In this document: piece by piece, positions 7,184 through 62,772 of the stretch
Position numbering within the stretch: position 1 is the stretch's first letter
Layout: each line of letters starts with the position of its first letter
NCBI GenBank assembly: GCA_964646645.1
Contig: CAZYHJ010000006.1
Span: 4,717 to 68,716 of the forward strand
Direction: 5' to 3'
From: an uncultured Saprospiraceae bacterium
GTDB taxonomy: Bacteria > Bacteroidota > Bacteroidia > Chitinophagales > Saprospiraceae
Length of the DNA: 64,000 bases
Translations under genes and position numbers: made by a program
The notes under the pieces: model-generated
Databases searched by the model: none
What the model was told of the DNA's origin: nothing
Seen by the model: only the letters and a program-made list of their open reading frames with translations

Positions 7184-7190
7184 AAACACG

Positions 7191-7233: not shown

Positions 7234-7251
7234 TTGTGAAATTTTGATAAT

Positions 7252-7295: not shown

Positions 7296-7296
7296 A

Positions 7297-10303: not shown

Positions 10304-10307
10304 TTTC

Positions 10308-14141: not shown

Positions 14142-14144
14142 TTT

Positions 14145-20334: not shown

Positions 20335-20352
20335 GTTGTGATAAGGTTTAAA

Positions 20353-29904: not shown

Positions 29905-30089
29905 CGGAATAATATTTTATTAAAGTTCATCCCGGGCACTCAAAATCCCTATGATGTCAATCATTTGCCTGTGTGAGGTCAGTCATATGAAATTTATTAG
30001 TATTTCATTTGGTTTATGATACTATAGATGGGTGCTTTATCATCCAGTATGGAGGGATGTGTATGCATCTCAATTTTATACAACGAACA

Positions 30090-31850
30090 ATGTCTACGCT
30101 CAATCACTCATTGTCGCGTGTCCTTTCAGAAATGGGAGAAATGTACAGGTACCTTGGCGCGCCGGAGCGATTTCGTGCTCTTGCTTATGCCAGGGCTGCC
30201 AGAACTATTGATAATCTAAAGGAGGATATCTCGCACTATATACAGCAAAACACATTAGAGGATATCCCCGGGATTGGTGAAAGTATTGCGGAGAAAATTA
30301 TTGAGTACACTCGTCGTGGACGAATAAAAAAATATGAGGAACTGAAGAAATCAGTGCCTTTTGAATTGATGGACCTGATGAGTGTAAGTGGGTTTGGGCC
30401 TCAATCGCTTAAGCAGATACATGACGAGTTGGGGATTTCAACCAGAGCAAAACTGATCCGTGCGCTTGAAGATGGACGAATCAGCCAATTAAAAGGTTTC
30501 GGCCCGAAGAAGGTCGAGAATATGCTTAGAGGGCTTAAGATGTTTAAGCAATCGGAGGAACGGATACTGTATGCAGAGGCAAAAGCAATCGCGGACCAGA
30601 TCGTGAAAACCCTCAGCGCGATGAGTGAGATTCTTGCCATTGAAGTAGCCGGAAGCATCAGGCGCGGAAAGGAAACGATCGGCGACATTGATATTCTGGT
30701 CGCATGCCGGACTGCTGACCGCAAGAAGGTCATTCAACGATTTGTGCTATTGGAAAATCGCAAATTGGTCCTGGTCAGAGGTAACACGAAAGCAAGTATC
30801 GTTGTGACGGATCACCACCGGCAAGTCGATTTAAGAGTTGTGAGTGAACATGAATGGGGAGCCGCATTACTATACCTGACAGGTTCCAAAGAGCATAATG
30901 TCCAATTACGAAGTCTTGCGAAGGAGAGAGGTATGAAGATCAATGAGTATGGGGTTTTTGATTTGAAAACAAATAAGCACATGGCGGGACGTTCAGAAGA
31001 GGAAGTATACAAACGTCTTGGATTTCAATTTATTCCACCGGAGTTGCGGGAAATGAATGGAGAAATTGAATGTGCCGCGAAAGGGAAATTACCCAGACTT
31101 ATTGAACCGCATGATATCCGCGGCGATATGCAGATGCACAGTCAATGGAGTGATGGAACAATGGATATTGCGACCCTGGCAAAATTTGTACGCGATCATT
31201 ACCCATACGAGTACATTGTACTGACGGATCATTCGAAGTCCTCCCGGATAGCGGGTGGATTGGATGCAAAGGAATTCAGAAAGCAGGCAAAGGAGATCGA
31301 CCTTGTAAACAAGCACCTTGGTCGGGACTTCATCAAAAAGGGAGTCGAGGTGGATATTCTTCCGGATGGATCTCTTGATTTACCGGATGATTTGTTGATG
31401 GAAATGGATTGGGTATGTGCGTCCATCCACTCCGGTTTTCAACGGGACAATACCGCAAGATTGGTCAGTGCGTGCAAGCATCCATATGTGCATTGCATCG
31501 GACATCCATCCGGAAGATTAATAGGCAAACGGGAGGCCTATAAGGCAGATTGGCAGGCAATATTTAAAGTGGCGGCTTTCACCGGAACGGCCATGGAGAT
31601 CAATGCCCAACCACAGCGCTTAGATCTCAGTGATCAACTGGCCAGGCAAGCGATCGAGGCTGGTGTCATACTGACCATAAGTACTGATAGTCATGCAGAA
31701 TCCCATTTTTCCTACATGACAGGTGGAGTACTGGTGGCCAGACGTGCCTGGTGCGAATCAGGTCATGTGCTCAATACAAAAAGCTGGGCGGAGGTAAAGA
31801 AATTCACACGGCAGAAGTATAGTTTGTCAAAGAGGAATGCCGGAAAATAA
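30090..31850 (+). CDS. DNA polymerase X family protein with C-terminal PHP domain
   Basis: HhH GIGESIAEKI, Pol-beta NT core GSIRRGKETIGDIDILV, PHP HSQWSDG...LTDHS. Start taken at MSTLNHSL. Confidence 0.9.
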   Translation: MSTLNHSLSRVLSEMGEMYRYLGAPERFRALAYARAARTIDNLKEDISHYIQQNTLEDIPGIGESIAEKIIEYTRRGRIKKYEELKKSVPFELMDLMSVSGFGPQSLKQIHDELGISTRAKLIRALEDGRISQLKGFGPKKVENMLRGLKMFKQSEERILYAEAKAIADQIVKTLSAMSEILAIEVAGSIRRGKETIGDIDILVACRTADRKKVIQRFVLLENRKLVLVRGNTKASIVVTDHHRQVDLRVVSEHEWGAALLYLTGSKEHNVQLRSLAKERGMKINEYGVFDLKTNKHMAGRSEEEVYKRLGFQFIPPELREMNGEIECAAKGKLPRLIEPHDIRGDMQMHSQWSDGTMDIATLAKFVRDHYPYEYIVLTDHSKSSRIAGGLDAKEFRKQAKEIDLVNKHLGRDFIKKGVEVDILPDGSLDLPDDLLMEMDWVCASIHSGFQRDNTARLVSACKHPYVHCIGHPSGRLIGKREAYKADWQAIFKVAAFTGTAMEINAQPQRLDLSDQLARQAIEAGVILTISTDSHAESHFSYMTGGVLVARRAWCESGHVLNTKSWAEVKKFTRQKYSLSKRNAGK

Positions 31851-44904: not shown

Positions 44905-45639
44905 ATGGTTGTTCCAGATATCTTTTTCTATATCCTGTTGCCTGCTGTAGCTTTCTTATATGCCTCTGTCGGGCACGGAGGAGCGAGTGGTTATCTCGCC
45001 CTGATGGCTTTGTTTTCGTTTGCACCCGAGGTCATGCGTCCCACTGCTTTGGTGTTGAATGTGTTTGTTTCCCTGATCTCGTTTATTCAGTATTATCGGA
45101 ATGGATATTTCGAATGGCGTTTATTCTGGCCATTTGCATTGGCATCTGTTCCTGCAGCATTTTTGGGCGGACTGATCGTCATGGATGGAGAAATGTATAA
45201 GCGCATCCTGGGTGTGCTTTTGATTTTATCTGTTCTTCGTTTGGTAGGTTTTGGAAAAACTCAAATCAATTCCATTAAGCCTCCGCAATTATTAACAGCA
45301 CTTCTTATCGGTGGTGCTATTGGATTCTTGTCCGGACTCATCGGAATAGGTGGCGGTATCATCCTCAGCCCTGTAATTTTATTGTTGCATTGGGGCGATA
45401 TGAAACGGACCGCAGCGGTTTCTGCACTGTTCATCTTTGTCAATTCGCTCGCCGGGCTGGCGGGATTGTGGACGAAGGGATTTGAGATGACTTCTCAGAT
45501 GGTGTTGATGCTTGGACTGGCGGTGGGTGGTGGATTGCTTGGGGCCTGGCTCGGAGCGGGACGGATGGAGAATAGGCAATTGAAATGGATCCTCGCCGTG
45601 GTGCTTACGATTGCATCGGTGAAGCTTTTGTTGACGTGA
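44905..45639 (+). CDS. TauE/SafE family anion exporter-like membrane protein
   Basis: 244 aa, 7-8 TM, duplicated G-rich motifs (VGHGGASGY; IGIGGGIILSP). Confidence 0.85.
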   Translation: MVVPDIFFYILLPAVAFLYASVGHGGASGYLALMALFSFAPEVMRPTALVLNVFVSLISFIQYYRNGYFEWRLFWPFALASVPAAFLGGLIVMDGEMYKRILGVLLILSVLRLVGFGKTQINSIKPPQLLTALLIGGAIGFLSGLIGIGGGIILSPVILLLHWGDMKRTAAVSALFIFVNSLAGLAGLWTKGFEMTSQMVLMLGLAVGGGLLGAWLGAGRMENRQLKWILAVVLTIASVKLLLT

Positions 45640-45748
45640 GTCGTGAGTCGTGAGTCGTGAGACGTGAGTCGTGAGTAAACTGCCTGATTCCTATCTCCTG
45701 ATTCCTACCTTTTTCCGCCCTTCCGCCCTTTTCCCTTACTTTACATCC
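45634..45748. repeat. heptamer array (cgtgagt)x6 plus ctgattcct and ccgccctt words
   Basis: The first unit contains the tauE stop TGA (45637-45639). 45687-45707 is identical to 4761-4781. Confidence 0.85.
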
Positions 45749-45988
45749 ATGAATTCCACCATTGAAATTCTCGCATTTGGGCAGATACTTGATATTATCG
45801 GGCAGAAAACACTGAACGTGGAGTATACTGATGATACGGATCAGTTGACTGCCACGCTGATAGAAAAATTTCCATCACTCGCCAAAGCAGAATATCGGAT
45901 GGCTGTTAATATGGAAATCATTCGTGGCAATGTGAAATTGAATCCGGGGGATGTGGTGGCATTACTGCCACCGTTTTCGGGGGGGTAG
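45749..45988 (+). CDS. moaD: molybdopterin synthase sulfur-carrier subunit MoaD
   Basis: 79 aa from MNSTIEILAFGQ, ThiS/MoaD fold pattern, C-terminal PPFSGG. Confidence 0.85.
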   Translation: MNSTIEILAFGQILDIIGQKTLNVEYTDDTDQLTATLIEKFPSLAKAEYRMAVNMEIIRGNVKLNPGDVVALLPPFSGG

Positions 45989-46064
45989 ATTCTTTTCGAA
46001 CAGGTTCGGATAAATTCCATTAATTTTAGATAAAAGAAGGGGTCGGCCTTCGAAGTATATTGGC

Positions 46065-46292
46065 ATGAAGAAGCAAATCAAGATCATCGTTGAAAAGCAT
46101 AAAGATGGCTTTGTAGCCTATCCGATTGGATTGAAAGGGGTAGTGGTTGCTCAAGGTAATTCCTACGACCAAGTCCTGACAGAGGTAAAATCAGCAATTG
46201 ATTTTCACATTGAAACCTTCGGCAAAGAAGTCTTTGAAGGAGAGGATATGATCATGGACGTATTTGTTGCCGAAACTCAGGTTGCTATGTGA
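46065..46292 (+). CDS. hicB: HicB-like antitoxin (UPF0150 type, no DNA-binding extension)
   Basis: 75 aa: IIVEKHKDGFVAYPIGLKGVVVAQGNSYDQVLTEVKSAIDFHIE. Confidence 0.8.
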   Translation: MKKQIKIIVEKHKDGFVAYPIGLKGVVVAQGNSYDQVLTEVKSAIDFHIETFGKEVFEGEDMIMDVFVAETQVAM

Positions 46293-46531
46293 TGCCCCGT
46301 TTTCCGCGTGATGCTCCCAAAGAAAAGGTTTTGAATGCCTTGAAAAGATTATCCTTTGTAATAGTAAGGGAGGGAAACCATATTGCCATGCGACGTATAA
46401 ATGCGGATGGCACATCAACGCCTCTTACCCTTCCAAACCATAACAGAATTAATGCCTCCACCCTACGGACCATTTTAAATCAATCTAACATATCCAGACA
46501 AGAGTTTTTGGAGGCATTTTACAATAAGTAA
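46292..46531 (+). CDS. hicA: HicA-like mRNA interferase toxin
   Basis: MPRFPRDAPKEKVLNALKRLSFVIVREGNHIAM...TLRTILNQSNISRQEFLEAF; the ATG overlaps the hicB stop (TGATG). Confidence 0.85.
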   Translation: MPRFPRDAPKEKVLNALKRLSFVIVREGNHIAMRRINADGTSTPLTLPNHNRINASTLRTILNQSNISRQEFLEAFYNK

Positions 46532-46547
46532 AGTACAAGGAGATGTC

Positions 46548-47093
46548 ATGAGCAATTGGTTTGTGATTTCAATATTCATCCTATTTTACGACAGCACCCT
46601 CAATGCTCAGAATAAGCCTGACCAAAAATATTTCCAGGGCGCATACTTTGCCTACATGGTTGACCCCATATATGATGAAGTAACCAGTGATTCAATCAAC
46701 CTACATAGTCAGTACCTGAATATTAATTTCCGTTATGCGCTCAACCGGGTTTGGAGGGTTGGTGCTGAATACATTCTGACTTTCATATCAGCGGATGAAG
46801 TTGACGATCCCTTCTCTACCGTTGGCTTGACGATTGATTATGATATACTTCGGGCAAAACGATCGAAATTGCATCTGCGGGCCGGCTTGAGTTGGAGCAA
46901 TTTTAATTCCCTCACGAATGGATTTCCACAGAAAAGATCGGTCTTTAATCGGGTACTTGGCGGATCCTATGAATACAGGCTCAACAATGTATTTTGGGCG
47001 TATGGAGGATTATATCATCATTTTCCATTTAATGAAATAGAATTTAAAGATGCCATGATCCAACCTTTCATTGGAATGGTCATCGGCATCTGA
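46548..47093 (+). CDS. secreted hypothetical protein, possibly beta-barrel
   Basis: Signal-like N-terminus and alternating aromatic/polar pattern; looks more AT-rich than its neighbours by eye. Confidence 0.45.
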   Translation: MSNWFVISIFILFYDSTLNAQNKPDQKYFQGAYFAYMVDPIYDEVTSDSINLHSQYLNINFRYALNRVWRVGAEYILTFISADEVDDPFSTVGLTIDYDILRAKRSKLHLRAGLSWSNFNSLTNGFPQKRSVFNRVLGGSYEYRLNNVFWAYGGLYHHFPFNEIEFKDAMIQPFIGMVIGI

Positions 47094-47117
47094 GGTATCC
47101 GTACTTTTGATTTTGAC

Positions 47118-47558
47118 ATGTCAGATAAAAAACCTAAAAAAGTCTTCATCGATGGCCCGGTCTCCCCGGAGTTTGTGGCCAAATCTATTGCGTCGCACAG
47201 CACTAAGATGGATATCGGCGCCCACAGCATTTTCCTGGGCCAGGTCCGAAATGACCTCATCGGAGAGCAGCGCGTTGAGGCTATCGAGTATACCGCCTAC
47301 ACGGAAATGGCCGAAAAGAAATTTCACGAGATCCGTGAGGATGCTTTCGCTCAATACCCATTGACTTGTCTTCATATTTATCACAGCCTCGGGACAGTAG
47401 CCGCTGGTGAGATCAGCCTTTTTGTTTTTACCTCCGCCGCCCACCGCTCCGAAGCCATCCGCGCCTGCGAATACCTCGTCGAACGCATCAAGCATGAGGT
47501 CCCTGTCTGGGGCCGCGAGATCATGGAGGATGGGAACTCGGTGTGGAAGGAGAATTAA
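47118..47558 (+). CDS. moaE: molybdopterin synthase catalytic subunit MoaE
   Basis: 146 aa: GAHSIFLGQVRND...VEAIEYTAYTEMAEK...GEISLFVFTSAAHRSEA...PVWGRE. Confidence 0.9.
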   Translation: MSDKKPKKVFIDGPVSPEFVAKSIASHSTKMDIGAHSIFLGQVRNDLIGEQRVEAIEYTAYTEMAEKKFHEIREDAFAQYPLTCLHIYHSLGTVAAGEISLFVFTSAAHRSEAIRACEYLVERIKHEVPVWGREIMEDGNSVWKEN

Positions 47559-47562
47559 GGAT

Positions 47563-47876
47563 CGTGAGACGTGAGACGTGAGACGTGAGTCGTCAGACGT
47601 GAGTCGTCAGACGTGAGTCGTGAGTTGCGGTTGGTGAGCTGTAGCACAAGGATGTGTAAAGCGGGTCGAACCATGAATGGTGAGTTGTGAGTAGTGAATC
47701 GTCAGTCGTCAGATATTTGCCTATTGCTTATTGCCCATTGCTTTCTGCCATCGGTCGCCGAAGCGCATTTCCGCGCGAAGGAGACCTTCCAGCTTAGTGG
47801 CTTCGCAGCACTGCGGGATCTCCGCTGCGCTTCGATCTTCCCTGTGCTCTATGCTCTATGCTCTCTGCTCTATGCG
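47563..47876. repeat. composite mosaic element, copy A (reverse orientation relative to B and C)
   Basis: (cgtgaga/cgtgagt/cgtcaga)x9 at 47563-47625; gtgagtt words at 47673-47714; ctattgc words at 47717-47748; core copy at 47785-47835; (ctatgct)n at 47841-47876. Confidence 0.9.
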
Positions 47877-47985
47877 TTTTTAGGCACGGTTTTCCCTATA
47901 TTTGATATCACGAAATCACCCACCCGATGCCCCCTCCACGGTGTGTTGGTTGTTTCGCCATTTGAGCTCAATTCTAAACATATTA

Positions 47986-48816
47986 ATGAATATCAAGAAG
48001 TATAACGGCCTGTATTTCAATGACGGAAAATTTTCCTCAGTGAGGGACACCCTTTCCGTTGAGGTCGGCCTGAGTATTTCAATCAATACCATTCCCTTCA
48101 CGGTCACCATGCAGACGCCCGGACAGGAGAAGGACCTGGTCAGGGGCCTCCTTTTTTCCGAAAGTATCTACCGGGATCTGAACCACCATCCAAAATTGGA
48201 AATGACTGGCATGGATGAGGATGGGTACATCAGCGCCATTAATGTGACGATACTGCAGGAACGCTTGCTAAAGGATTTTGCCGGCACCCGAAATGTAATG
48301 TCTGCCTCATCCTGTGGATTGTGTGGAAAAACAACTTTTGACGAAGCGGATACAGCCAGGATTATAAATGATCATCAAATCGATCCCGGAATCATTGGGG
48401 AGATGTTTGATCAGATGAACGAATTGCAGAATTCGTTTAAAGCATCCGGAGGTACCCACGCCGCTGGTGCATTTACGCTCGAGGGAGAATTGCTCAGCAT
48501 ACGTGAAGACATCGGCCGGCACAATGCCGTAGATAAAGTGATCGGCGACCTGATCCACCAAAACCTCCTTCAACGGGCCGCCTGCCTGACCGTTAGTGGC
48601 CGCATATCATTTGAAATCGTCAGCAAAGCAATTTCGGCCGGCATACCCTATCTTGCCTCAGTATCGGCCCCATCCTCCCTCGCGGTGGATACCGCCGAAC
48701 AAGCAGGCCTGACGCTCATGGCGTTTTGCCGCAATCACAGATTAACCGTTTACTCAAATACCGGGAACGTACGTACCGAATCAACAGAGGCGCTGGCCCC
48801 GGTCAACAAGAAGTAA
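47986..48816 (+). CDS. fdhD: formate dehydrogenase accessory sulfurtransferase FdhD
   Basis: 276 aa from MNIKKYNG; SSCGLCGK active-site loop, GGTHAAG, GRHNAVDKVIG. Confidence 0.9.
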   Translation: MNIKKYNGLYFNDGKFSSVRDTLSVEVGLSISINTIPFTVTMQTPGQEKDLVRGLLFSESIYRDLNHHPKLEMTGMDEDGYISAINVTILQERLLKDFAGTRNVMSASSCGLCGKTTFDEADTARIINDHQIDPGIIGEMFDQMNELQNSFKASGGTHAAGAFTLEGELLSIREDIGRHNAVDKVIGDLIHQNLLQRAACLTVSGRISFEIVSKAISAGIPYLASVSAPSSLAVDTAEQAGLTLMAFCRNHRLTVYSNTGNVRTESTEALAPVNKK

Positions 48817-48817
48817 A

Positions 48818-50470
48818 ATGTCAAAGAATTTAAGTGAACTCTCCGGCCGCAAAGGCCTTGAAAAGAATCTGTTTGAGGAGTTGGGTAAAGCAGCTCAAGC
48901 CACAGGCACACCTGATCTGGATGCGCAGGAACAACTGAGCTATGATTTTCTTGTGGGCAAGGCCAATGTGTATGGCGCTGTTTCTTTCTACGATTTTCTA
49001 CGTCCTGAAAACCAGGGTAAGAAAGTCTATGTCTGCAATGGAAGTGCCTGCATGACCGCCGGAACACAGGATGCACTAAAGGCTACATTATCGACCCATT
49101 TTCAAGCCGATGAAATAGGTGAAATGTGCTGTCTAGGCCGCTGCCACGAAAACAGTTCGTTTCATTATGACGGCCGCAACTACAGCGGAACGGATATCCA
49201 GAACATCAGCAGTATAAAGCAAAACCAAACGACAACCGCCGAACATTACAATGTCGGTCATATCGGTACACCGATTCTTACGGCACCTTACGGTAGCATC
49301 AATGAATACTACAGCATTTTTAAAAAATGCCTTCAACAACCCGCATCACAATTACTTACGGAATTAAAAGATTCAGGAGTGCGTGGTCGTGGTGGAGCCG
49401 GTTTCCCAATGGCCTTTAAACTTGAAGCATGCCGCAATCAGCAGGAGGAAACAAAGTTTATTGTTTGCAATGCTGATGAAGGAGACCCGGGAGCATATTC
49501 CGACAGGTATATCATGGAACAGCGTCCACATGCCCTTCTCATGGGCATGATGATCGCCGGGTACATCGCCGGGGCCAAATATGGAGTGGTCTACATTCGC
49601 GGAGAGTATCCTGAATCCGTAGACATCATCAATGATGCTATTGCGGAACTGCATCAACATCATTTGCTTGGTGAAAACATCGAAGAATCCGGTTTCGATT
49701 TTCAGTTTAAAGTAATCAAAGCACAAGGCGCATACATCTGTGGTGAAGAAACCGCCTTACTCTCTTCCATTGAAGGCCAACGTCCCGAGGTGCGCGTGAG
49801 ACCACCTTATCCGGTACAACAAGGTTTGTTTAATAAACCTACTGTCGTCAACAATGTCGAAACGCTGGCCAACCTGCCATGGATCATGCAGCAAGGTGGT
49901 AAAGCATACGCTTCGTTAGGAACTCCTAAATCAACGGGGACAAAATTGATTTCCCTGGATGGTTTTTTTAACAAGCCAGGTATTTATGAAGTGGATATGG
50001 GCACGCCCCTAAGACAAGTAGTAGATCAACTCGGTGGAGGATTTAAGTCGCCAGTAAAAGCCATGCATATCGGTGGTCCACTTGGAGGACTGGTGCCTGT
50101 AAGCGCCATTGATAAACTTACGGTCGATTTTGATTCATTTGCCCGAGAGGGATTCTTATTAGGACATGCTTCTGTTGTTTGCATTCCTGAAGATTATCCA
50201 TTGGTCCAGTACATCGAACATCTCTTCCGCTTTACGGCACATGAGAGTTGCGGAAAATGTTTCCCTTGCAGATTAGGTTCGACGCGCGGGTATGAATTGC
50301 TGGAAAAAGCACAAAAGGAAAACTATAAGATTGATATCACACTGATGAAGGATCTGCTCGACACCATGGAAGCCGGATCCTTATGCGCATTGGGTGGTGG
50401 ACTACCGCTACCTATTAAGAATGCCATGAAGTATTTTGAAACCGAACTCGCACCCTACTTTAAATCATAA
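48818..50470 (+). CDS. NAD-linked formate dehydrogenase diaphorase subunit (fused NuoE-like + NuoF-like)
   Basis: NuoE-type 2Fe-2S (CNGSAC...CLGRC), FMN/NADH site GRGGAGFP, 4Fe-4S ESCGKCFPCR. Confidence 0.9.
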   Translation: MSKNLSELSGRKGLEKNLFEELGKAAQATGTPDLDAQEQLSYDFLVGKANVYGAVSFYDFLRPENQGKKVYVCNGSACMTAGTQDALKATLSTHFQADEIGEMCCLGRCHENSSFHYDGRNYSGTDIQNISSIKQNQTTTAEHYNVGHIGTPILTAPYGSINEYYSIFKKCLQQPASQLLTELKDSGVRGRGGAGFPMAFKLEACRNQQEETKFIVCNADEGDPGAYSDRYIMEQRPHALLMGMMIAGYIAGAKYGVVYIRGEYPESVDIINDAIAELHQHHLLGENIEESGFDFQFKVIKAQGAYICGEETALLSSIEGQRPEVRVRPPYPVQQGLFNKPTVVNNVETLANLPWIMQQGGKAYASLGTPKSTGTKLISLDGFFNKPGIYEVDMGTPLRQVVDQLGGGFKSPVKAMHIGGPLGGLVPVSAIDKLTVDFDSFAREGFLLGHASVVCIPEDYPLVQYIEHLFRFTAHESCGKCFPCRLGSTRGYELLEKAQKENYKIDITLMKDLLDTMEAGSLCALGGGLPLPIKNAMKYFETELAPYFKS

Positions 50471-50475
50471 AGGTT

Positions 50476-53220
50476 ATGTCACAGACAGCCTATATCAACG
50501 ATATTGAATATCCCATCCTGCCAGGTGATACCATTTTAAAGTTGGTTCGCCGTCACCTGGGCCAGGATCATGTGCCGACATTGTGCGATGCGCCTAACCT
50601 TGATCCCTTTGGTTCATGCAGGGTATGCAGCGTGGATGTCGCCCTCGTCAAGAACGGACCCGCAAAGGCACAGGCTTCATGCCATACACCGGTCATGGCC
50701 AACTCTTACATCTATACGGACAGTGAGCGTATCACTAAACTTAGGAAGAATATCATTGAGTTGGTGTTGACAGATCACCCATTGGATTGTTTGACTTGCG
50801 AAGTGAATAACAACTGTGAGTTACAAACCGTAGCGGCAAGAGTCGGCATTAGAAAAGTACGATATCCGGAAGGTAAGAACCATCTGGATAAGGAAAAGGA
50901 TCTGAGTCATCCGTACATGACATCTGATTTTTCAAAGTGTATCAATTGCTTCAGGTGTGTGCGAGCCTGTGATGAAGTGCAGGGGCAGTTGGTGCTGAGT
51001 ATGGCTGGTCGTGGCTTTGATAGTCATATCATCAAGGGATTTGAACAAAACTTCTTTGAGTCGGATTGTGTGAGTTGCGGCGCTTGTGCGCAGGCGTGCC
51101 CAACTTCAGCGATCTCAGATGTGTTTGAATCAAAATCTGTGGCTGTTGATGAGAAGATCAGGACCGTATGCACCTATTGTGGTGTGGGATGCAACCTCGA
51201 AGTAGCGGTAGTCAATAAAAAAGTAAAGTCCATCCAGGCGCCTTATGATGCGGAAGTCAATACGGGTCATACTTGCCTCAAAGGCAGATTTGCGTTTTCA
51301 TTTTACAACCATCCCGATCGCCTGCGTACTCCGCTGATCCGTAAGGATGGAGAATTGGTCCCTGCGACATGGGAAGAGGCGTATAATTATATCGCGGATA
51401 AGCTGACCTTCATTAAGAACGAACATGGCCCGGATGCCATTGCAGGTATTTCATCTGCCCGTTGTACCAATGAAGAGAATTACCTGATGCAGAAATTCAT
51501 TCGCGCGGTCATCGGTACAAACAATATCGATAGTTGCGCCCGCGTCTGCCATTCGCCAACGGCATTGGGTATGCAGCGCACCTTTGGTACCGGGGCGGCT
51601 ACGAATTCGATCATCGATCTCAAATACACGGATTGCATCATGGTCATCGGTGCCAATCCTACCGATGCGCATCCGGTGACCGGCGCTAAGCTGAAACAGT
51701 TTGCGATGAGTGGAAAGACCACGATTGTGATCGATCCTCGTCGAACTGAAATGGCTCGTTATGCCACGTACCATTTACAACTGCGGCCGGGTACTAATGT
51801 AGCCGTCATGAATATGCTGTTGTATTGGATCATTACGGATGGCCTGGAGGATAAGAACTTTATAGATTCCAGGACTGAGGGATACGAAGAGTTTAAGAAG
51901 CATATCCTCAGCCTGGATGTGAGTGAACTGGAGAAAATCAGTGGGGTGAATAAGGATTTGGCGAGAAAGGCGGCAAGGGCCTATGCTACTGCGCCCAATG
52001 CAATGTCATTCCATGGACTCGGTGTGACAGAACATTCACAGGGCACGTACACGGTGATGCTCATTGCGGACCTGGCAATGATCACCGGGAATATTGGTCG
52101 CCGTGGTGTGGGTGTGAATCCGTTACGCGGACAGAATAATGTGCAAGGAGCTGCTGACATGGGATGTCAGCCGCATCAGGGCGCGGGCTACCTGGATGTG
52201 ACGCAACCTGAAGTGCATAAAATGTATGAGGATTTTTATCACGCCAAATTGCCATTGCACATCGGATATAAGATACCACAGATGTATGATGCCGCTTTGG
52301 CTGGAAAACTAAAAGCGTTGTGGCTGATGGGCGAGGATAATGTGCAGACGGATCCGAATACACAGCATGTGGTGAGTGCGATGGAGAAACTTGACCTTTT
52401 AGTGGTGCAGGAAATCTTTATGACGGAGACCGCAAAATTAGCGCACGTGGTATTGCCTGCCTCTTCATTTTTAGAAAAAAGTGGAACATTTACGAATGGG
52501 GAGCGGAGAATACAAAGAGTACAAGCCGTTGTGGAGCCGCTTGAAGGCACCAAACCAGATGGACAGATCATCGTTGATATCATGAATCGTATGGGGTATG
52601 CTCAACCCGATTATGATCCGGCATTGATGTTGGAGGAGATTTCGCAGATCGTGCCTTTCTTCGCTGGTGTGAAGTGGGATGAGTTGGGTGAGAATGGCAA
52701 GCAATGGCCTGTTAAACCAGATGGTACAGACACGGAGATCCTGCACATTGATAGTTTCAAACGCGGTAAAGGAAAATTCCAGGTGGCCACGTGGCGTGAA
52801 TCAGAGGAGATTCTCAATCATGGCCAGGAGTTCCCGTATATCCTTACCACAAACCGCGAGCTTGAGCATTACAACTGCGGCACCATGACACGCCGCACGG
52901 GTAACGTTGAAATTCTTACGGATGATGTTTTACTGATTCACCCGGAAGATGCCGCCAAACATTTCATAGAAGAAGGTGATTTCGTTTGCATCATCAGCGC
53001 CCGTGGCAAGATCGATGTCAAGGCTAAGATCACTGATGAAGTACGGCCTGGGGTGCTATCTTCCACCTTCCATTTTCCTGAAGTGCGCATGAACGATCTG
53101 ACCTCATCTGTAAGTGACAGCGAAGCCATGTGCCCTGAATATAAAGTGGTGGCTGTAAATATTCGTAAGAGCAAGGGCGTGCATAAAGCAAAAGCGAATG
53201 GCGCTACTGCGAAAGCATAG
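50476..53220 (+). CDS. formate dehydrogenase alpha subunit (molybdopterin, Cys-type, NuoG-like N-terminus)
   Basis: 2Fe-2S CDAPN..GSCRVC; HPLDCLTCEVNNNC; CINCFRCVRAC; CVSCGACAQAC; MopB CTYCGVGC. Active site ARVCHSPT with a Cys codon at 51547-51549. Confidence 0.95.
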   Translation: MSQTAYINDIEYPILPGDTILKLVRRHLGQDHVPTLCDAPNLDPFGSCRVCSVDVALVKNGPAKAQASCHTPVMANSYIYTDSERITKLRKNIIELVLTDHPLDCLTCEVNNNCELQTVAARVGIRKVRYPEGKNHLDKEKDLSHPYMTSDFSKCINCFRCVRACDEVQGQLVLSMAGRGFDSHIIKGFEQNFFESDCVSCGACAQACPTSAISDVFESKSVAVDEKIRTVCTYCGVGCNLEVAVVNKKVKSIQAPYDAEVNTGHTCLKGRFAFSFYNHPDRLRTPLIRKDGELVPATWEEAYNYIADKLTFIKNEHGPDAIAGISSARCTNEENYLMQKFIRAVIGTNNIDSCARVCHSPTALGMQRTFGTGAATNSIIDLKYTDCIMVIGANPTDAHPVTGAKLKQFAMSGKTTIVIDPRRTEMARYATYHLQLRPGTNVAVMNMLLYWIITDGLEDKNFIDSRTEGYEEFKKHILSLDVSELEKISGVNKDLARKAARAYATAPNAMSFHGLGVTEHSQGTYTVMLIADLAMITGNIGRRGVGVNPLRGQNNVQGAADMGCQPHQGAGYLDVTQPEVHKMYEDFYHAKLPLHIGYKIPQMYDAALAGKLKALWLMGEDNVQTDPNTQHVVSAMEKLDLLVVQEIFMTETAKLAHVVLPASSFLEKSGTFTNGERRIQRVQAVVEPLEGTKPDGQIIVDIMNRMGYAQPDYDPALMLEEISQIVPFFAGVKWDELGENGKQWPVKPDGTDTEILHIDSFKRGKGKFQVATWRESEEILNHGQEFPYILTTNRELEHYNCGTMTRRTGNVEILTDDVLLIHPEDAAKHFIEEGDFVCIISARGKIDVKAKITDEVRPGVLSSTFHFPEVRMNDLTSSVSDSEAMCPEYKVVAVNIRKSKGVHKAKANGATAKA

Positions 53221-53469
53221 AGCATAGAGCAGAGGGCATAGAGCAAGGGGCAAATAGATTTTGGGAATTAAATTCTTGAAAATTCGCGTGAATTCGCGGC
53301 TGTAACCAAATAGGCAATTCGAAGCGCAGCGAAGATCCCGCAGTGCTGCGAAGCCACTAAGCGGGAAGGCAATAGGCAATAAGCAATAGGCAATAAGCAA
53401 TGGGCAATTCATTGTGTACTACTCACTGCTCACCACTCACCATTCACAACTGACGACTGACGACTCACG
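53214..53469. repeat. composite mosaic element, copy B
   Basis: (gcataga)n at 53214-53250 includes the fdhA stop TAG; 60-nt core at 53314-53373; (gcaataa/gcaatag)n at 53368-53410; (actcac/gactgac)n at 53421-53469. Confidence 0.9.
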
Positions 53470-53505
53470 TTATACAGATCACAGATCACTGCACACCGAT
53501 ATTCC

Positions 53506-54420
53506 ATGGTAGACATCACCAATAAAATCATCACCCACAGAGTTGCTATTGCCGAAGCCACCGTACATGTCAGCGCTCAGGAGACGATAGATGCCATCCA
53601 GCAGAAAACAGTTCCGAAAGGAGATGTCTTTGAGGCAAGCCGTGTGGCCGGACTGTTCGGGATCAAACGGACCAGTGATATGATCCCGGATTGTCATCCC
53701 TTGCCGGTGGAATTTGCGGCCGTGAGATTCAGGATCGAAGGATTGGATATTTTTATTGAGACAGAGGTGCATACCCTTTATAAGACTGGCGTGGAAGTAG
53801 AGGCCATGCATGGCGCATCAGTCGCGGCACTTACGGTGTATGATATGTTGAAACCGATCGATAAAGGGATTGAGATCCGTAACATACGACTCGTGAAAAA
53901 GAAGGGAGGAAAAGGGCAGTATACGGATCTGCCTAAACGCGAACTCAAAGTTGCTGTCATCGTTTGTTCGGATAGTATATCTGCAGGCAAGAAACAGGAT
54001 TTCGCGGGAAAGGAAATCATCAGCCACTTGGAGAAATGGGGTGTACAGACGCATGACTATACTATCATTCCTGATGAATTGGCTGTCATTCAAGGCAGAG
54101 TTCAGGAGTTGTATAATCAGCAATATGATATGATCTTATTGACAGGCGGGACCGGACTTTCACCAAGAGATGTGACCCCCGAAGCTATTCGCCCTATGCT
54201 GGACCGGGAGATTCCTGGTGTTGCAGAAGCAGCCAGACAATATGGTCAGCAGCATATGCCTTATAGTATGCTGTCCCGCAGCCTCGCCGGACTCAAGGGC
54301 AAGACGCTCATCATGGCCCTCCCCGGCTCTACCCGCGGCGCAGCCGAGAGTATGGATGCTTTGTTCCCTTATATCCTCCACATTTTCCGTGTATCAGATG
54401 GTATGCCCCACGGAGAATAG
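53506..54420 (+). CDS. bifunctional MoaC (cyclic pyranopterin monophosphate synthase) / MoaB-Mog-like protein
   Basis: N-terminal MoaC (TSDMIPDCHPLP, KTGVEVEAMHGASVAALTVYDM). C-terminal MoCF domain (VAVIVCSDS, LLTGGTGLSPRDVTPEA). Confidence 0.9.
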   Translation: MVDITNKIITHRVAIAEATVHVSAQETIDAIQQKTVPKGDVFEASRVAGLFGIKRTSDMIPDCHPLPVEFAAVRFRIEGLDIFIETEVHTLYKTGVEVEAMHGASVAALTVYDMLKPIDKGIEIRNIRLVKKKGGKGQYTDLPKRELKVAVIVCSDSISAGKKQDFAGKEIISHLEKWGVQTHDYTIIPDELAVIQGRVQELYNQQYDMILLTGGTGLSPRDVTPEAIRPMLDREIPGVAEAARQYGQQHMPYSMLSRSLAGLKGKTLIMALPGSTRGAAESMDALFPYILHIFRVSDGMPHGE

Positions 54421-54595
54421 CCTAAGACCCATTCAGCCGATTTTCTTCTTTTTCAAAAAAACTCTTGATTTCTTAAGCCTTTGATTCTCAATTATCTGAT
54501 TGAGGTAAATCAATTTTTGGTCAAAATATTATTACAAAATGTAAAATAAACTATACAAAAAGTAAAATATGCTTTATGTTTGAGGCGTTAAAAGG

Positions 54596-54904
54596 GAAAC
54601 AGGAAACAGGCAATAGGCAATTTGCAATTCGAAGCGCAGCGAAGATCCCGCAGTGCTGCGAAGCCACTAAGCGGGAAGGCAATGAGCAATAAGCAATAAG
54701 CAATAAGCAATGGGCAATAAGCAATGAGCAATAAGCAATGAGCAATAAGCTATGTAAAGCAAACCACAGGCTATGAAATAATAACTCTACTAGAAGTCCC
54801 CTTTAGGGGATTTAGGGGCCGAGGATGCAATGCAATAAGCAAATTTCTCACGACTGACGACTCACGAATCCCCACTCACAACTGACAATTCACCACTCAC
54901 AATT
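54596..54904. repeat. composite mosaic element, copy C
   Basis: gggaaacagg words; 60-nt core at 54624-54683, identical to copy B; (gcaataa/gcaatga)x~9 at 54679-54750; gaagtcccctttaggggatttaggggcc at 54793-54820; (ctcacga/ctgacga/actcaca)n at 54847-54904. Confidence 0.9.
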
Positions 54905-54933
54905 AATCAATTCCCATCAAAAATTATCAAACA

Positions 54934-55431
54934 ATGAACCACAAACTTCTCTTACCCAATCGCTTCAAGATGATCGGTTGGATTTTCCTCATTCCCGCAA
55001 CAATAGCTGGGATTATACTCATGTCAATGGATTATGAGACTGAATGGCTTAACACAAAGGTTTTTGCCATCATAAACGATCAGTTTTTATTTTCCAATAG
55101 CGTTACATTTCCCAATAGAAAATTTTTCACAGTGATCACCGCTAACATTACCAATTCCCTGGTAGCGTTTTTATTTATTCTGGGAGCCATGATGGTGGCA
55201 TTTGCGAAGGAGAAGACTGAAGATGAGTACATCGCAAAACTGAGACTATCATCGCTGCTTTGGTCCGTATGGGTCAATTATATTTTTTTGTTACTGGCTT
55301 TGGCTTTTGTTTGGGGCTTCTCCTTTTTTAATGTCATGGTCTACAACATGTTTACTATCCTGATCATCTTTATCATCCGATTCAATTACCTGCTGTACAG
55401 AAGCACAAATGCGATGGCCGATGAAAAATAA
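54934..55431 (+). CDS. membrane protein (4-5 TM), unknown function
   Basis: 165-aa hydrophobic ORF overlapping the start of the following HTH gene. Confidence 0.5.
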   Translation: MNHKLLLPNRFKMIGWIFLIPATIAGIILMSMDYETEWLNTKVFAIINDQFLFSNSVTFPNRKFFTVITANITNSLVAFLFILGAMMVAFAKEKTEDEYIAKLRLSSLLWSVWVNYIFLLLALAFVWGFSFFNVMVYNMFTILIIFIIRFNYLLYRSTNAMADEK

Positions 55432-56592: not shown

Positions 56593-57429
56593 TCATTCAT
56601 TAGGAGGCGATGAAAGCCGAGATTCGTCATAATGCGTGATCTGACGTGGGTAAGGCAGGCGAATATCTTTTTCCTTCAGCGCCTTAAAGATGGCCACCCG
56701 AATTTCACTCTTTATATTCTCTACCCGAAATACCTCCGAGCACCAAAACATAATCGTGATCTCGACGGAGGATTCACCGAATTTTGTAATGCGAATGGAA
56801 GGTTCGGGCGATCTGCTAACTGACTTGTGCTGTAACGTCACTTCTTTAAACAGCGTCATCACCGCAGGAATCTCCTCTGTATAGGGAAGTAATACCTGGA
56901 TTTCAAATCGGGATGTCTGATGACTATAGGTCCAGTTGACCACTTTCCCTTCCGTAATCACAGAATTGGGAAGGATAATATATTTATCCTCCCGCGTCAT
57001 GACCGCTGTAGTGCGCAGTTTAATCTCCTTCACCCTGCACACGATGCCATCTACTTCGATGACATCATTGACCTTGATGGTGCCGTCAAATAAAATAATG
57101 ATGCCGGATATAAAATCTTTGAAGAGGTGTTGTAGTCCAAATCCAATACCTACCAACAACGCCGCTGACCCTACAAAAATGACAGAAAGATCAATCCCCA
57201 GCGCAGTGACACCCGAAAGAACAGCCACAACGATCAAGGTGTATTTGGCCAGTTGCCGTATAGAGTATTTGGCGCCCTCGTCAATTTTCTTGTGCCGAAC
57301 GATTGCCCTGCTCAGCGTCATCAGGATGATCTTTGCGGCCAGGATGATCGCTACGACAACAAGTAGGTTGTGCACATACAAGGAGTAGTCTCCTATTTGG
57401 AAAATGCGATAGTCCAGAAATGATTTCAT
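56593..57429 (-). CDS. mechanosensitive ion channel (MscS family)
   Basis: 3 TM plus GIGFGLQHLFKDFISGIIILFDG pore helix and a beta-domain. Confidence 0.85.
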   Translation of the reverse strand: MKSFLDYRIFQIGDYSLYVHNLLVVVAIILAAKIILMTLSRAIVRHKKIDEGAKYSIRQLAKYTLIVVAVLSGVTALGIDLSVIFVGSAALLVGIGFGLQHLFKDFISGIIILFDGTIKVNDVIEVDGIVCRVKEIKLRTTAVMTREDKYIILPNSVITEGKVVNWTYSHQTSRFEIQVLLPYTEEIPAVMTLFKEVTLQHKSVSRSPEPSIRITKFGESSVEITIMFWCSEVFRVENIKSEIRVAIFKALKEKDIRLPYPRQITHYDESRLSSPPNE

Positions 57430-57444
57430 AGCCAGAATCTCATT

Positions 57445-57891
57445 TTACATTTTAAGGCTCCCTTTTTCGAAAGGGCGTTGTTCATCCAGATCCGCCGCCT
57501 GTAGAAGGAAAGTGAGCACAAGTGCGTCATCGATTTCTTCGGGCGAATGAAAGTCTCTCCAATATACTTGTTTACGATGTTCTTTAACCAAAAAGACTTC
57601 AGGATCATCCAATAGATATCCTTTTGTAAAACCAAGCCGAACTCCATTTTGTTTGACACTGCCCCATGCAATACTTACGGGCCATATAAAGCAGATATTA
57701 TTATGCCTTTTGTAAAAAGGCACATTGTAAGCAAGTTTCTCTTTAGCATCCGGAATGGCCTGGAGGACCACTTCACGAAGGTTCTCTACCAATTTTAATT
57801 CATCGCCCGGCAATGCTTCAAGGAATTCCTCCACGGAGGCAAAGGAGACATCCTGCATTTTGCGTTTGGGTTGTAATGGCTGCATGTTCAT
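57445..57891 (-). CDS. DUF1801 (YdhG-like) domain protein
   Basis: SVEEFLEALPGDE...LREVVLQAIPDAKEKLAYNVPFYK pattern; the ATG overlaps the upstream stop (ATGA). Confidence 0.7.
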   Translation of the reverse strand: MNMQPLQPKRKMQDVSFASVEEFLEALPGDELKLVENLREVVLQAIPDAKEKLAYNVPFYKRHNNICFIWPVSIAWGSVKQNGVRLGFTKGYLLDDPEVFLVKEHRKQVYWRDFHSPEEIDDALVLTFLLQAADLDEQRPFEKGSLKM

Positions 57892-60879: not shown

Positions 60880-62772
60880 ATGATGAAAGGAATTCTGATC
60901 CTGATTTTTATTTGCAGTTTCACAGTGCTGAGGTTGCCTGCTCAGATGAACAGGGACAGCTTGTGGACCGAATGGAGCAATGCCGCAGCTTCCGACTCTA
61001 ACCGGTTGAACGCAATACAACGACTCGCCTGGCCAATGCTCAATGTCAATCTGGATTCAGTTTTATTACTGGCCAACATGCAACTAAAGTTTGCGAGGGA
61101 GCGGGACCAGCAATTATGGGCAGGGAAGGCGCTCTATACGATAGCCACTGCATATTACTATAAGGGGGATTACGTGAGTTCCCTTAACTATTACCAACAG
61201 AGTCTGGACATCCGGAAAGCGATTGGGGATTTGAAAGGTGAAGCCGCCATATATGGAAATTTTGGATTGATCTATAGCGCCAAGGGTGACAATGTCAAGA
61301 ATCTGGAGTACCAGTTAAAGTCGCTGGCCATCAATGAGAAAATCAATGACACTTCCGGATTGACAAGTAATTACAGCAATATCGCGATCATCTATCAGGA
61401 ACAAGAGGATACGCTTAAGGCACTGGAATACTATAACCGATCCATTAAGATCTATGAGGCGAAAAGGGATGAACAGGGGCTTGGATTGCTGTACAATAAC
61501 ATCGGCACGATGTACAAGGATTTTAAAATGTGGGATAAATCCTTGTATTATCTGAATAAGAGCCTGGAGATCCGGACACGACTTAATGATCGTATGGGTA
61601 TGGCGATTACTTACGTCAACCTGGGTACGGTCTACAATAAAATGGGAGAATATGAACAGGCTAAAACCTATACGCTCCTGAGTACAAAGAGTTTTGAAGC
61701 CCTCCGGGACTCCGGTAGCCTGACGAATACTTATTATACACTGGGTGAAATCGCTCTGAATCAGATGGATTTTAAAGGGGCGAAAGAATGGTGTGACAAA
61801 TCATTGGTCATCGCGAGAGCCACAGATAAAGTCCCGGTCCAACGTGCGGCGTGCAATTGCCTGTTCAGGGCTTATAAGGCCACCGGTGATGCTGAAAAGG
61901 CGCTCGGGTATTTTGAGGAATTTTATATGCTCGATGACAGTCTGAATAAACTCAACGTAGCCGTCGAGCTGAAGCGTATTGAATTTGAACGGGACCTGCT
62001 TTTGGATAGCCTGAGCCGTGAAGATGAGAAACGACAGATCAACCTGGCCCATCAGGCAGAACTGACAAAAAAGAACAACTATATCCGATTGATGCTGCTT
62101 CTGGGGATAGGTATTTTGTTGCTGGCCCTGATCTTTTTATTCCGGATGTTACGCTATCAGCGCAATTCACAGCAATTTAAATTGAAATCTGAGCAGCTTG
62201 AAAAGCAACAATTAGTCAGTGAGATTGCATTGCTGAAGACCCAGGTCAATCCACACTTCTTATTTAATAGTCTCAGCATTCTCTCTTCCCTGGTGCGTGT
62301 GGACCCGGATTTATCTGAAAAATTTATCGATCAGTTGTCCCGGTCATACCGGTATATTCTTGAGCAGAAAGATCAGCCGTTGGTGACCCTCCGTACTGAA
62401 CTCACCTTTATTGAGTCTTATACTTTCCTGCTGCGGATTCGGTTTGAGAACAAATTCAACGTTCATATTGATTTGCCTGAACAGATCCTGGATAAATATA
62501 AAATTCCACCCCTCACCTTGCAGTTGCTGATCGAAAATGCGGTGAAGCATAATCGGATGTCCGTTTCGGAGCCATTGGATTTGACCGTGACCGTAGAAGA
62601 GGATAAGATGTTAGTGATCAAAAACAATTTACAGCCGCGCAGCACACCATCGATGTCCACTGGCGTGGGGCTGCAGAATATAATGAACCGGTATGCGCTA
62701 TTAACCAAGTATCCGGTTTGGGCCGGTGAAGCGGGTGATCAGTTTGTCGTCCGGATTCCATTACTCACCTAA
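60880..62772 (+). CDS. TPR-repeat sensor histidine kinase, LytS/YehU (His_kinase) type
   Basis: Signal, ~8 TPR units, one TM (LMLLLGIGILLLALIFLF), then NPHFLFNSL H-box and an HATPase-like end. Confidence 0.85.
   Translation: MMKGILILIFICSFTVLRLPAQMNRDSLWTEWSNAAASDSNRLNAIQRLAWPMLNVNLDSVLLLANMQLKFARERDQQLWAGKALYTIATAYYYKGDYVSSLNYYQQSLDIRKAIGDLKGEAAIYGNFGLIYSAKGDNVKNLEYQLKSLAINEKINDTSGLTSNYSNIAIIYQEQEDTLKALEYYNRSIKIYEAKRDEQGLGLLYNNIGTMYKDFKMWDKSLYYLNKSLEIRTRLNDRMGMAITYVNLGTVYNKMGEYEQAKTYTLLSTKSFEALRDSGSLTNTYYTLGEIALNQMDFKGAKEWCDKSLVIARATDKVPVQRAACNCLFRAYKATGDAEKALGYFEEFYMLDDSLNKLNVAVELKRIEFERDLLLDSLSREDEKRQINLAHQAELTKKNNYIRLMLLLGIGILLLALIFLFRMLRYQRNSQQFKLKSEQLEKQQLVSEIALLKTQVNPHFLFNSLSILSSLVRVDPDLSEKFIDQLSRSYRYILEQKDQPLVTLRTELTFIESYTFLLRIRFENKFNVHIDLPEQILDKYKIPPLTLQLLIENAVKHNRMSVSEPLDLTVTVEEDKMLVIKNNLQPRSTPSMSTGVGLQNIMNRYALLTKYPVWAGEAGDQFVVRIPLLT

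Follow-up and report, generated by a model that had tools for sequence, protein, structure and literature searches.

The short tandemly repeated repetitive (STRR) sequences of heterocystous cyanobacteria, which Mazel and colleagues are said to have described in 1990, are reportedly intergenic heptameric repeats, and the small dispersed repeats (SDRs) of Nostoc punctiforme, attributed to Elhai and colleagues in 2008, are said to be 21-27 nt long and of high copy number. The BOX elements of Streptococcus pneumoniae have boxA and boxC ends and a variable copy number of boxB, and move as a unit. Here, we compare with these families the repeat-filled spacers of a cluster of molybdenum cofactor (Moco) and formate dehydrogenase genes from an uncultured Saprospiraceae bacterium (Bacteroidota), analyzed in a window of 64,000 nucleotides (assembly GCA_964646645.1, contig CAZYHJ010000006.1, positions 4,717-68,716; unless a relative or another contig is named, coordinates below are those of the window). 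Heptanucleotide repeats have been summarized as the most abundant class of long simple sequence repeats (SSRs), for which polymerase slippage was proposed (Mrazek et al., 2007, as summarized in PMC4679880). Arrays of TAACTGA are known from Beggiatoaceae, Cyanobacteria, and five Bacteroidetes, with several heptamers per spacer (MacGregor, 2015, PMC4679880), and arrays of GGGAATC and GGGGAYT from Xanthomonas and Nostoc (Rehm et al., 2015, PMC4692102). The latter study found the repeats on the coding strand 0-50 bp past stop codons and on the non-coding strand 0-50 bp before start codons, mostly with co-oriented open reading frames (ORFs) on either side and seldom with divergent ones (Rehm et al., 2015, PMC4692102).

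Three spacers are at issue, namely moaE-fdhD (A; 427 nt, 47559-47985), fdhA-moaC (B; 285 nt, 53221-53505), and the one downstream of the moaC/B fusion gene (C; 513 nt, 54421-54933). The first-pass annotation, whose spacer lengths are correct, had read them as copies of a discrete modular element. We consider it rather likely that they are instead not copies of one mobile unit, but spacers composed of heptameric SSR arrays together with a small repeat borne by one type of array. Tandem Repeats Finder (TRF) places the arrays where they had been annotated, and recovers arrays in further window spacers (2310-2524, 4727-4783, 13950-14143, 20346-20593, and 45635-45730). With periods of 7, 8, 14, and 21 counted, 906 of the 918 array bases lie between genes and 12 in coding sequence; dinucleotide shuffles of the 35 gaps average 1.9 array bases and never exceed 40, against 905 observed. 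The spacers are indeed mosaics of recurrent, non-palindromic, strand-asymmetric tandem words with a common non-tandem core, in both orientations. All three share this core, but at 51 nt it is shorter than the ~60 nt given for it, nor is it unique: a second contig from this metagenome carries four more copies in tandem. The module order that had been proposed as common is similar in A and B, with core A inverted relative to B and C as described; it extends only partly to C, where the CTATGCT module is missing and GGAAACA/TGTTTCC stands in its place, and where the two GTGAG-type sub-modules come in reverse order.

The annotation had not recognized the repeats as a described family; however, the tandem words belong to the known heptameric SSR/long SSR (LSSR)/STRR class. 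As in that class, the 7-nt units are arranged head to tail (3-10 copies by TRF), several words occur per genome and often several per spacer, the arrays are nearly all intergenic and mostly lie between co-oriented genes, their length changes by whole units, they show the polarity of Rehm et al. (2015), and relatives share the junctions with variation in length and sequence. Unlike the described heptamer SSRs, the window has different words (GTGAGTN, ATTGCYY, TGCTCTA, and others), and its arrays fill some spacers wholly, interleaved with several small dispersed repeats. A literature search returned no paper on such repeats in Saprospiraceae.

The arrays also show a polarity: as in Xanthomonas and Nostoc, the words that come after a stop codon are G-rich (and here C-poor, usually with a stop triplet), and those ahead of a start codon are G-poor. 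In the sense of co-directional genes, GC skew is higher in the first than in the last third of the gap in all 15 array-bearing gaps (8 from the window and 7 from relatives), vis-à-vis 8 of 13 array-free ones. Arrays at stop codons are oriented such that the word contains a stop triplet (GTGAGTN, GTGATCT, AGCATAG, and AATTAGT, with GCAATAA as a further stop-bearing word), and, 7 not being divisible by 3, the triplet comes up in every frame. Where an array abuts a gene end, the median distance from that end to off-frame stops is 26.5 nt, versus 68 nt for other gene ends. Arrays at start codons are G-poor in the mRNA sense and include ACTCACN, AAYTAAAC, TTCCGCC, and CU-rich words. This polarity largely accounts for the apparent common order of modules. 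Either orientation of a GTGAG...TGCTC spacer is allowed, since a G-rich-then-C-rich layout is its own reverse complement; given the rule and the fixed link between the core and the ATTGCYY array, the sole free choice is therefore to have the TGCTC array either within the core block or beyond it. With one free choice only, the agreement of the three spacers is unremarkable, and the module is even missing from C.

The GTGAGTN words reach well beyond Saprospiraceae. A scan of the GTDB representative genomes with (GTGAGTN)x3.7 found arrays at no fewer than 120 loci (L010-L129) in at least 15 phyla, with Bacteroidota, Planctomycetota, Chloroflexota, Cyanobacteria, Proteobacteria, Acidobacteriota, Gemmatimonadota, Armatimonadota, Verrucomicrobiota, and others among the matches listed. 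Of 109 arrays among the matches listed, 71 have a sense ORF (≥80 codons) ending at the 5' end of the array and 11 an antisense ORF at its 3' end; an inverted (NACTCAC)n partner within 300 nt lies downstream in 22 of the matches listed and upstream in none. Other genomes have inverted complementary GTGAGT/ACTCAC pairs, unlike the window, whose words are not complementary, and a pairing of G-rich with C-rich halves was dropped as a candidate. A link to the replication strand was also set aside, the GTGAG side being on the plus strand in 6 of 8 composites, which is not significant; Rehm et al. (2015, PMC4692102) likewise saw no replication-strand bias of heptamer repeats.

Strains and relatives show how the arrays change. 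The closest homologs of the MoaC/MoaB fusion protein (53506-54420) come from Saprospiraceae metagenome-assembled genomes (MAGs; 82-87% identity), and the protein itself is also encoded by a JGI metagenome contig of 123.6 kb and by Logan contigs. The window is 99.35% identical to the former across 20 kb, with no gaps, and 99.9% identical to the Logan contigs from SRR17347226, so that three assemblies of one species could be compared. Array lengths are equal in the three strains save at one place: in the same-species sequence L002, whose moaC gene differs by 1 nt, exactly one ACTCACG unit is missing, which is the signature of slippage. Four relatives, L006 (GCA_016715165.1), L008 (GCA_009612795.1), L007, and the closer L133 (83-87% nucleotide identity to the window), keep the gene order with spacers of different length and content. 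All four share the junctions at which arrays of hepta- and octamers occur (tauE-moaD, fdhA-moaC, and a 165-aa membrane protein gene's leader), with related or different words, some of them the same as in the window, so that the word families recur outside it too. Thus, at the tauE stop codon L006 and L008 have orthologous TGAGTTG, TGAGTCG, or TTGTGAG arrays, and at that of fdhA L133 and L008 have orthologous AGCATAG/AGCAGGG units; GCCCTATGCTCTCT precedes moaD in relatives, and TCACAAT or CATCAACC stands immediately before the start codon of the 165-aa gene. Across related species, therefore, heptamer arrays keep their gene junctions while the words turn over; other Saprospiraceae and Lewinellaceae MAGs are also rich in such arrays.

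The core behaves differently from the arrays in its distribution. Its copies are 96-100% identical, with no matches in shuffled sequence, and B and C share 100 nt at 95% identity (54619-54718 in C). Seven copies were seen at two loci, three in the window, all within 7.3 kb, and four in tandem on contig L132. All are inside ATTGCYY arrays in the same orientation relative to the array, and the adjoining unit is ATTGCCT on 9 of 11 sides across the seven copies, against ~3 of 29 internal array units, copy A being without such flanks; with the bracketing ATTGCCT units the core measures ~62 nt. The L132 cluster (10075-10420 of that contig) consists of four direct core copies with 25-46 nt of ATTGCYY heptamers between them, giving higher-order periods of 76, 97, and 173 nt, and lies upstream of a gene for a 4111-aa Ig-like adhesin, with kinase, Fic, and TrmE genes as other neighbors. 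From its GC content (46.7%) and its tetranucleotide correlation with the window (0.89), we infer that this contig, from the same metagenome, belongs to the same organism. These four copies were found through protein collections, using translations of the open frames of the core as queries; when the spurious ORF that covers core B was run against the whole protein library, the 110-aa P0121 of L132 was the sole true match. A core 22-mer had no match in the GTDB representative genomes, and a 20-mer had two in the JGI metagenome contigs, both by chance in unrelated high-GC contigs, the source metagenome evidently lying outside that collection. The core is not found in the relatives carrying the same operon, and, together with the 32-nt SDR-e adjoining core A, it has no match in plasmid and phage collections. 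At the fdhA-moaC junction of L133, a GCAATAN array runs uninterrupted, i.e., the core is absent from the orthologous site.

Variation among the copies is informative. Core position 14 varies between A, G, and T. In the window, copies B and C of the core are identical, but copy B has G14, like copy A, and T37 in both the JGI and the Logan assemblies. Spacer B, only 285 nt long, holds three of the five single-nucleotide polymorphisms (SNPs) by which the window differs from the JGI strain over 13.7 kb (P = 8.6e-5), one of them at 53430. The strain differences between core copies fit the pattern expected of conversion. The core also folds into an imperfect hairpin (-21 kcal/mol, z = -1.9) and contains the near-palindrome CGCAGTGCTGCG, yet among the core copies three stem substitutions break pairs and none is compensated. 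A homology between the core and SDR-e was rejected, as the score of 20 is not significant against 10.8 ± 3.7 in shuffles. On these features, we regard the core as a probable species-restricted, low-copy small dispersed repeat. As with the Nostoc SDRs, it is very short, non-coding, and enzyme-less, and lies in repeat-rich intergenic DNA with presence/absence at orthologous sites (as in the L133 array) and nesting (as in SDR-c, below); unlike them, it is 51 nt long, counts seven copies at two loci rather than being 21-27 nt and highly repeated, and comes from another phylum.

Several other small repeats accompany the arrays, three of which had been left unseparated in the first-pass annotation: SDR-b (~52 nt, 47625-47676), SDR-e (32 nt, 47753-47784), and SDR-d (28 nt, 54793-54820). 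The SDR-b unit recurs in the tauE-moaD spacers of L006 (~2178-2232) and L008 (~2357-2432), split in the latter by a 25-nt insert. SDR-d has a second window copy (14014-14066), again split by a 25-nt insert, and L133 (486-542) has the same split form at 94.7% identity. The 25-nt sequence, SDR-c CGYCGTGCTGAGCGKAGYCGAAGTA, is thus nested in two different repeats, the 28-nt SDR-d GAAGTCCCCTTTAGGGGATTTAGGGGCC and, in L008, SDR-b (window 14029-14053; L008 2372-2396; L133 ~501-525; L006 ~2255-2275), and looks like a very small SDR-type insertion; it is within the SDR length range, with three copies counted. Downstream of moaC in L133, the spacer holds a 46-nt unit homologous to SDR-e, tandemly repeated at least 2.2 times (87-90% identity), and the middle of spacer B of L133 (~200 nt) is homologous to window spacer C, comprising a GCAAT array, SDR-d with the nested 25-nt insert, and an ACTCAC array. 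Given this composite and the tandem SDR-e copies, neighboring spacers exchange small repeats and array pieces, the outermost arrays remaining with their genes.

We propose that the heptamer arrays grow, shrink, and drift through replication slippage, as the one-unit polymorphism suggests, and that the rule linking word and position acts as a filter on expansion next to coding ends, with no dedicated function implied. Candidate benefits that such a filter may favor are backup stops after genes and unstructured, Shine-Dalgarno-free leaders before them; initiation in Bacteroidota is independent of the Shine-Dalgarno sequence, with which G-poor leaders fit. The core would multiply passively with its flanking array, the arrays supplying the homology: unequal crossing-over between arrays could yield tandem higher-order repeats such as the four L132 copies, and ectopic gene conversion between nearby ATTGCYY arrays could yield the three copies in 7.3 kb and convert core B to the sequence of C. 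SDR-b, -c, -d, and -e would be reshuffled among the same spacers likewise.

Several observations weigh against this reading. Slippage is seen as one one-unit indel, and strains 99.35% and 99.9% identical show no other change in length, so the arrays are not hypermutable. The strength of the polarity and its reach across phyla could mean a real function, e.g., a binding platform, in place of a passive filter. Core copies outside the window were findable only where called ORFs cover them, and the seven copies are a minimum for the genome. The B-to-C conversion could be an assembly mix-up of near-identical repeats, and the empty site of L133 is no clean footprint of insertion or excision, because several other rearrangements differ there. 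Finally, ATTGCCT on both sides and a fixed orientation are also expected from target-specific insertion with a 7-bp duplication, and a transposase could be encoded elsewhere in the genome.

These last points lead to an alternative in which the core and its ATTGCCT brackets are a tiny non-autonomous mobile element, specific in site and orientation for ATTGCCT units, with the arrays as landing pads and not vehicles; it would be Nostoc SDR-like, or a single-hairpin element mobilized by IS200/IS605 or RAYT functions, and the brackets would be its target duplication. The ATTGCCT excess at the flanks, the constant orientation, the imperfect hairpin, the uninterrupted array of L133, the nesting of tiny repeats in this lineage, and the confinement to one species are as this predicts, but recombination between arrays yields the same features equally, and we deem the mobile core unlikely. 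The ORFs of the ~64-kb window and flanks yielded no gene for a transposase, RAYT, reverse transcriptase, or integrase, and no transposase, RAYT, or reverse transcriptase gene lies beside the L132 cluster; the copies are clustered and not scattered, the ATTGCCT units at 4727-4783 are unoccupied, and copy A is without ATTGCCT flanks. As for miniature transposable elements with inverted repeats (MITEs), terminal inverted repeats are absent, and the ATTGCCT brackets are indistinguishable from array units, though they could be a duplication. A stronger version, in which the core with ATTGCCT is a new tiny mobile or self-propagating element of Bacteroidota targeting one heptamer and the polarity in addition reflects a conserved gene-boundary function (candidates being translation stops in every frame, leaders free of structure, or a platform for a protein that binds single-stranded nucleic acid), strikes us as quite improbable.

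That the whole block of GTGAG, ATTGCYY, core, and TGCTC modules is a composite element like BIMEs (bacterial interspersed mosaic elements), BOX, or MITEs, copied as a unit in either orientation, is the reading closest to the first-pass annotation. The similar order in A, B, and partly C, the inversion of A, and the ~200-nt composite common to spacer B of L133 and window spacer C speak for it, the last implying that multi-module pieces can be copied between spacers. The composite blocks have, however, no common outer boundaries, terminal inverted repeats, or target-site duplications, and no inverted repeats of ≥10 nt lie inside the spacers. The modules are separable: TGCTC is missing from C, the spacers at 2310-2524 and 45635-45730 have GTGAG and TGCTC arrays but no core, and L132 has the core and ATTGCYY arrays without GTGAG or TGCTC arrays. 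In relatives, the same junctions carry arrays without the core, and the outer arrays keep their position with the flanking genes, and are therefore older than, and independent of, the core. With the order largely predicted by polarity and the association of the core with the ATTGCYY array, we judge this composite very unlikely. We find it similarly hard to credit that the core and arrays are cis-elements, whether a protein-binding platform or a processed RNA, which co-regulate Moco biosynthesis and formate dehydrogenase genes. Three copies in one functionally coherent cluster, the near-palindrome and hairpin, the strong polarity, and the experimental tie of Nostoc heptamer repeats to expression changes (bioRxiv 10.1101/2022.06.06.494920) would accord with this. 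Against it, the core occurs in both orientations relative to transcription and four copies lie upstream of the unrelated giant adhesin gene, relatives have the same operon without it, the hairpin-breaking substitutions are uncompensated, and whole-spacer folding is no better than in shuffles (z = +0.6 and +0.85). A promoter and terminator scan showed no enrichment and none inside the spacers. At gathering thresholds, Rfam has no match in the window, including the spacers and core, and no Moco riboswitch; with E up to 5, the region 45500-55100 gave one chance snoRNA match inside a gene. Mis-assembly of metagenomic reads could be suspected since short-read assemblies break at the core (L002 begins and ends in cores and L131 begins in one, both assemblies breaking inside core C) and the identity of B and C is peculiar to the assembly of the window. 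It is nonetheless exceedingly improbable as the origin of the repeats or their arrangement, given that three independent assemblies agree base for base on the spacers, except for 3 SNPs and one 7-nt indel, and that arrays of this kind are also present in NCBI and ENA sequences of relatives.

Likeness to other repeat types is thus partial. Like BIMEs, repetitive extragenic palindromes (REPs), and REPINs, the spacers are mosaics between genes, made up of a short conserved unit and linker motifs in alternation, with tandem clusters and copy number varying between strains. However, REP units are imperfect palindromes in alternating orientation tied to RAYTs, whereas the window words are non-palindromic, palindromic units of ~35 nt in alternation are absent, and the clustered cores, all direct on L132, are co-oriented. 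The modules are intergenic as in BOX elements, but have no defined ends, and the variable ones are 7-nt microsatellites. The L132 cluster resembles a CRISPR in its four direct ~51-nt repeats and 25-46-nt intervals, but the latter are heptamer arrays, not unique sequences, and no cas genes are nearby. Hence, the arrays are of a known class, and the core resembles the Nostoc SDRs in behavior, though not in length or copy number; there is no new element type.

The individual modules are as follows, on the plus strand unless stated otherwise. In spacer A, array F1a (CGTGAGA/CGTGAGT/CGTCAGA, ~9 copies, 47563-47624; TRF period 7, CGTGAGA x8.9, score 89) begins 5 nt past the stop codon of moaE and contains TGA in every frame, with off-frame stops 16 and 23 nt past that stop. 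SDR-b (TTGCGGTTGGTGAGCTGTAGCACAAGG...GGTCGAACCATGA) separates it from a second GTGAG array, F1b (GTGAGTT, GTGAGTA, GTGAATC, GTCAGTC, GTCAGAT; 47674-47713, repeat family D1 at 47670-47713), which is 86% complementary to 53418-53446. Next comes the ATTGCYY-type array F2 (TTGCCTA, TTGCTTA, TTGCCCA, TTGCTTT, CTGCC; 47717-47752, TRF 47717-47749, with TTGCCTA at 47717-47741), complementary to the GCAATRR arrays of B and C. SDR-e (TCTCCTTCGCGCGGAAATGCGCTTCGGCGACC, minus strand) adjoins core copy A (51 nt, 47785-47835, minus strand, from the repeat search), which has two mismatches to B/C (G14, T45), and the spacer continues with array F3 (TNTGCTC, ~6 copies, 47836-47877; TRF 47845-47875, TGCTCTA x4.4).

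Spacer B starts with the reverse complement of F3 (AGCATAG, AGCATAG, AGCAGAG, GGCATAG, AGCAAGG, GGCAAAT; 53214-53252, TRF AGCATAG 53214-53245), the fdhA stop codon TAG sitting in the first AGCATAG unit, followed by ~56 nt of unique sequence (53253-53308), likewise left unseparated in the first-pass annotation, and, on the far side of the core, one ATTGCCT unit (53309-53318). Core copy B (51 nt, 53319-53369), identified like copy C by repeat search, adjoins the reverse complement of F2 (GCAATAG and GCAATAA, ~5.5 copies, 53370-53408; TRF AGGCAAT x6, 53367-53408). The reverse complement of F1 (ACTCACN/ACTGACG x ~7, then ACAGATC x2.3; 53418-53489, TRF 53421-53468 with ACTCACC x6.9, and 53474-53489) stops 17 nt short of the moaC/B start codon, forming a G-poor leader; the ACTCACG unit missing from L002 belongs to this array.

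In spacer C, the left arrays (GGAAACA x2.3, then GGCAATA, GGCAATT, TGCAAT; 54595-54628, TRF 54595-54610) precede core copy C (51 nt, 54629-54679), and the reverse complement of F2 follows (GCAATGA and GCAATAA, ~10 copies, 54679-54754; TRF period 7 x10.3 and period 14 x5.4, score 131, with GCAATAA x10.3 spanning 54679-54750). After SDR-d, the reverse complement of F1 (CTCACGA, CTGACGA ... CTCACAA; 54847-54904, TRF CTCACGA x7.7, 54847-54900) stops 30 nt short of the start codon at 54934, and is 89% complementary to 13955-13992. The same spacer has A-rich boxes with a 21-nt period (AAATGTAAAATAAAC...), conserved in all relatives upstream of the genes for the 165-aa membrane protein and an Xre-type HTH protein (window 54523-54570; L006 12003-12064; L008 ~13040-13100; L133 ~1700-1745), which are probably an operator or promoter region of this gene pair, the heptamer arrays being unrelated to them.

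Elsewhere in the window, GTGATNN arrays, ~60 nt of unique sequence, and a 14-mer TGCTCTTTGCCCTA x5.9 form a coreless spacer (2310-2524, TRF), in which the GTGATNN arrays overlap the stop codon of an M29 peptidase gene (Pfam). A coreless ATTGCYY-type array with unoccupied ATTGCCT units (TTGCCAC, TTGCTGA, TTGCCTA, TTGCCAA, TTGCCTA) lies at 4727-4783 (TRF). The spacer at 13950-14143 (TRF), between two minus-strand genes, is filled with repeats from start codon to stop codon, comprising a GTGAGTT-type array, SDR-d with the nested 25-nt SDR-c, and CGTGAGT/CGTAATT arrays. Octamer arrays of GTTTAWNN and GATTAGNN, then TGCCCTATGCTCT x2, occupy 20346-20597 (TRF 20346-20593), also between two minus-strand genes. 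In the tauE-moaD spacer (45635-45730, TRF), CGTGAGT x6, with the tauE stop codon TGA in its first unit, is followed by CCTGATTCC and TTCCGCCC repeats before moaD. Between convergent genes at 7181-7296 there are two GC-rich palindromes, GTAGGGGCAGGTCGCGACCTGCCC and GTAGGGACAGGTCGCGACCTGTCCCTAC, with 31-nt inverted arms, which look like a terminator or another small repeat family.

The window (GC 45-47%, 86% coding) has an ordinary chromosomal gene set by Pfam scans of ~40 ORFs and precomputed gene calls, e.g., HflX, formate-tetrahydrofolate ligase, a P-type ATPase, and the pst operon, and, for Moco and formate metabolism, moaA, moeA, moaD, moaE, fdhD, subunits of an NAD-dependent formate dehydrogenase, and moaC/B. 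The moaD-moaE interval (46065-46531) has an insertion consisting of a HicA-toxin gene and one for a partner of 75 aa, together a hicAB-like toxin-antitoxin pair, with none at the same position in L006. A family-X (Pol β-like) DNA polymerase gene with HhH and thumb domains lies at 30009-31850. Against the JGI strain, the window shows 130 differences, mostly in two short tracts (57262-57806 and 61547-62733) that correspond to an MscS/DUF1801 region and a gene for a TPR-histidine kinase, a clustering which suggests recombination tracts. Past the LytTR regulator gene (in the window, after 63563), the JGI strain has in addition a MacB/FtsX ABC-transporter cassette of ~5.4 kb.

In practical terms, the pattern is a well-formed, mostly ordinary example, useful for annotation and assembly. 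The repeats break short-read assemblies exactly at the core, and give spurious calls of 103-, 102-, 38-, and 110-aa "proteins" (window 47694-48005, 53104-53412 on the minus strand, and 54576-54692, and P0121 of L132, respectively); the L132 cluster could be mis-called as a CRISPR, and the repeats as novel elements. For the organism, direct and inverted repeats of 51-100 nt flank moaC/B and fdhD-fdsB-fdhA, and are potential substrates for deletion or inversion. The most intriguing by-product is the anchoring of GTGAGTN arrays on stop codons across phyla. For the family, the spacers show that Saprospiraceae, abundant in activated sludge and freshwater, share an intergenic architecture long known from filamentous cyanobacteria, viz., heptamer microsatellites and tiny nested repeats with the same strand rule at gene ends.

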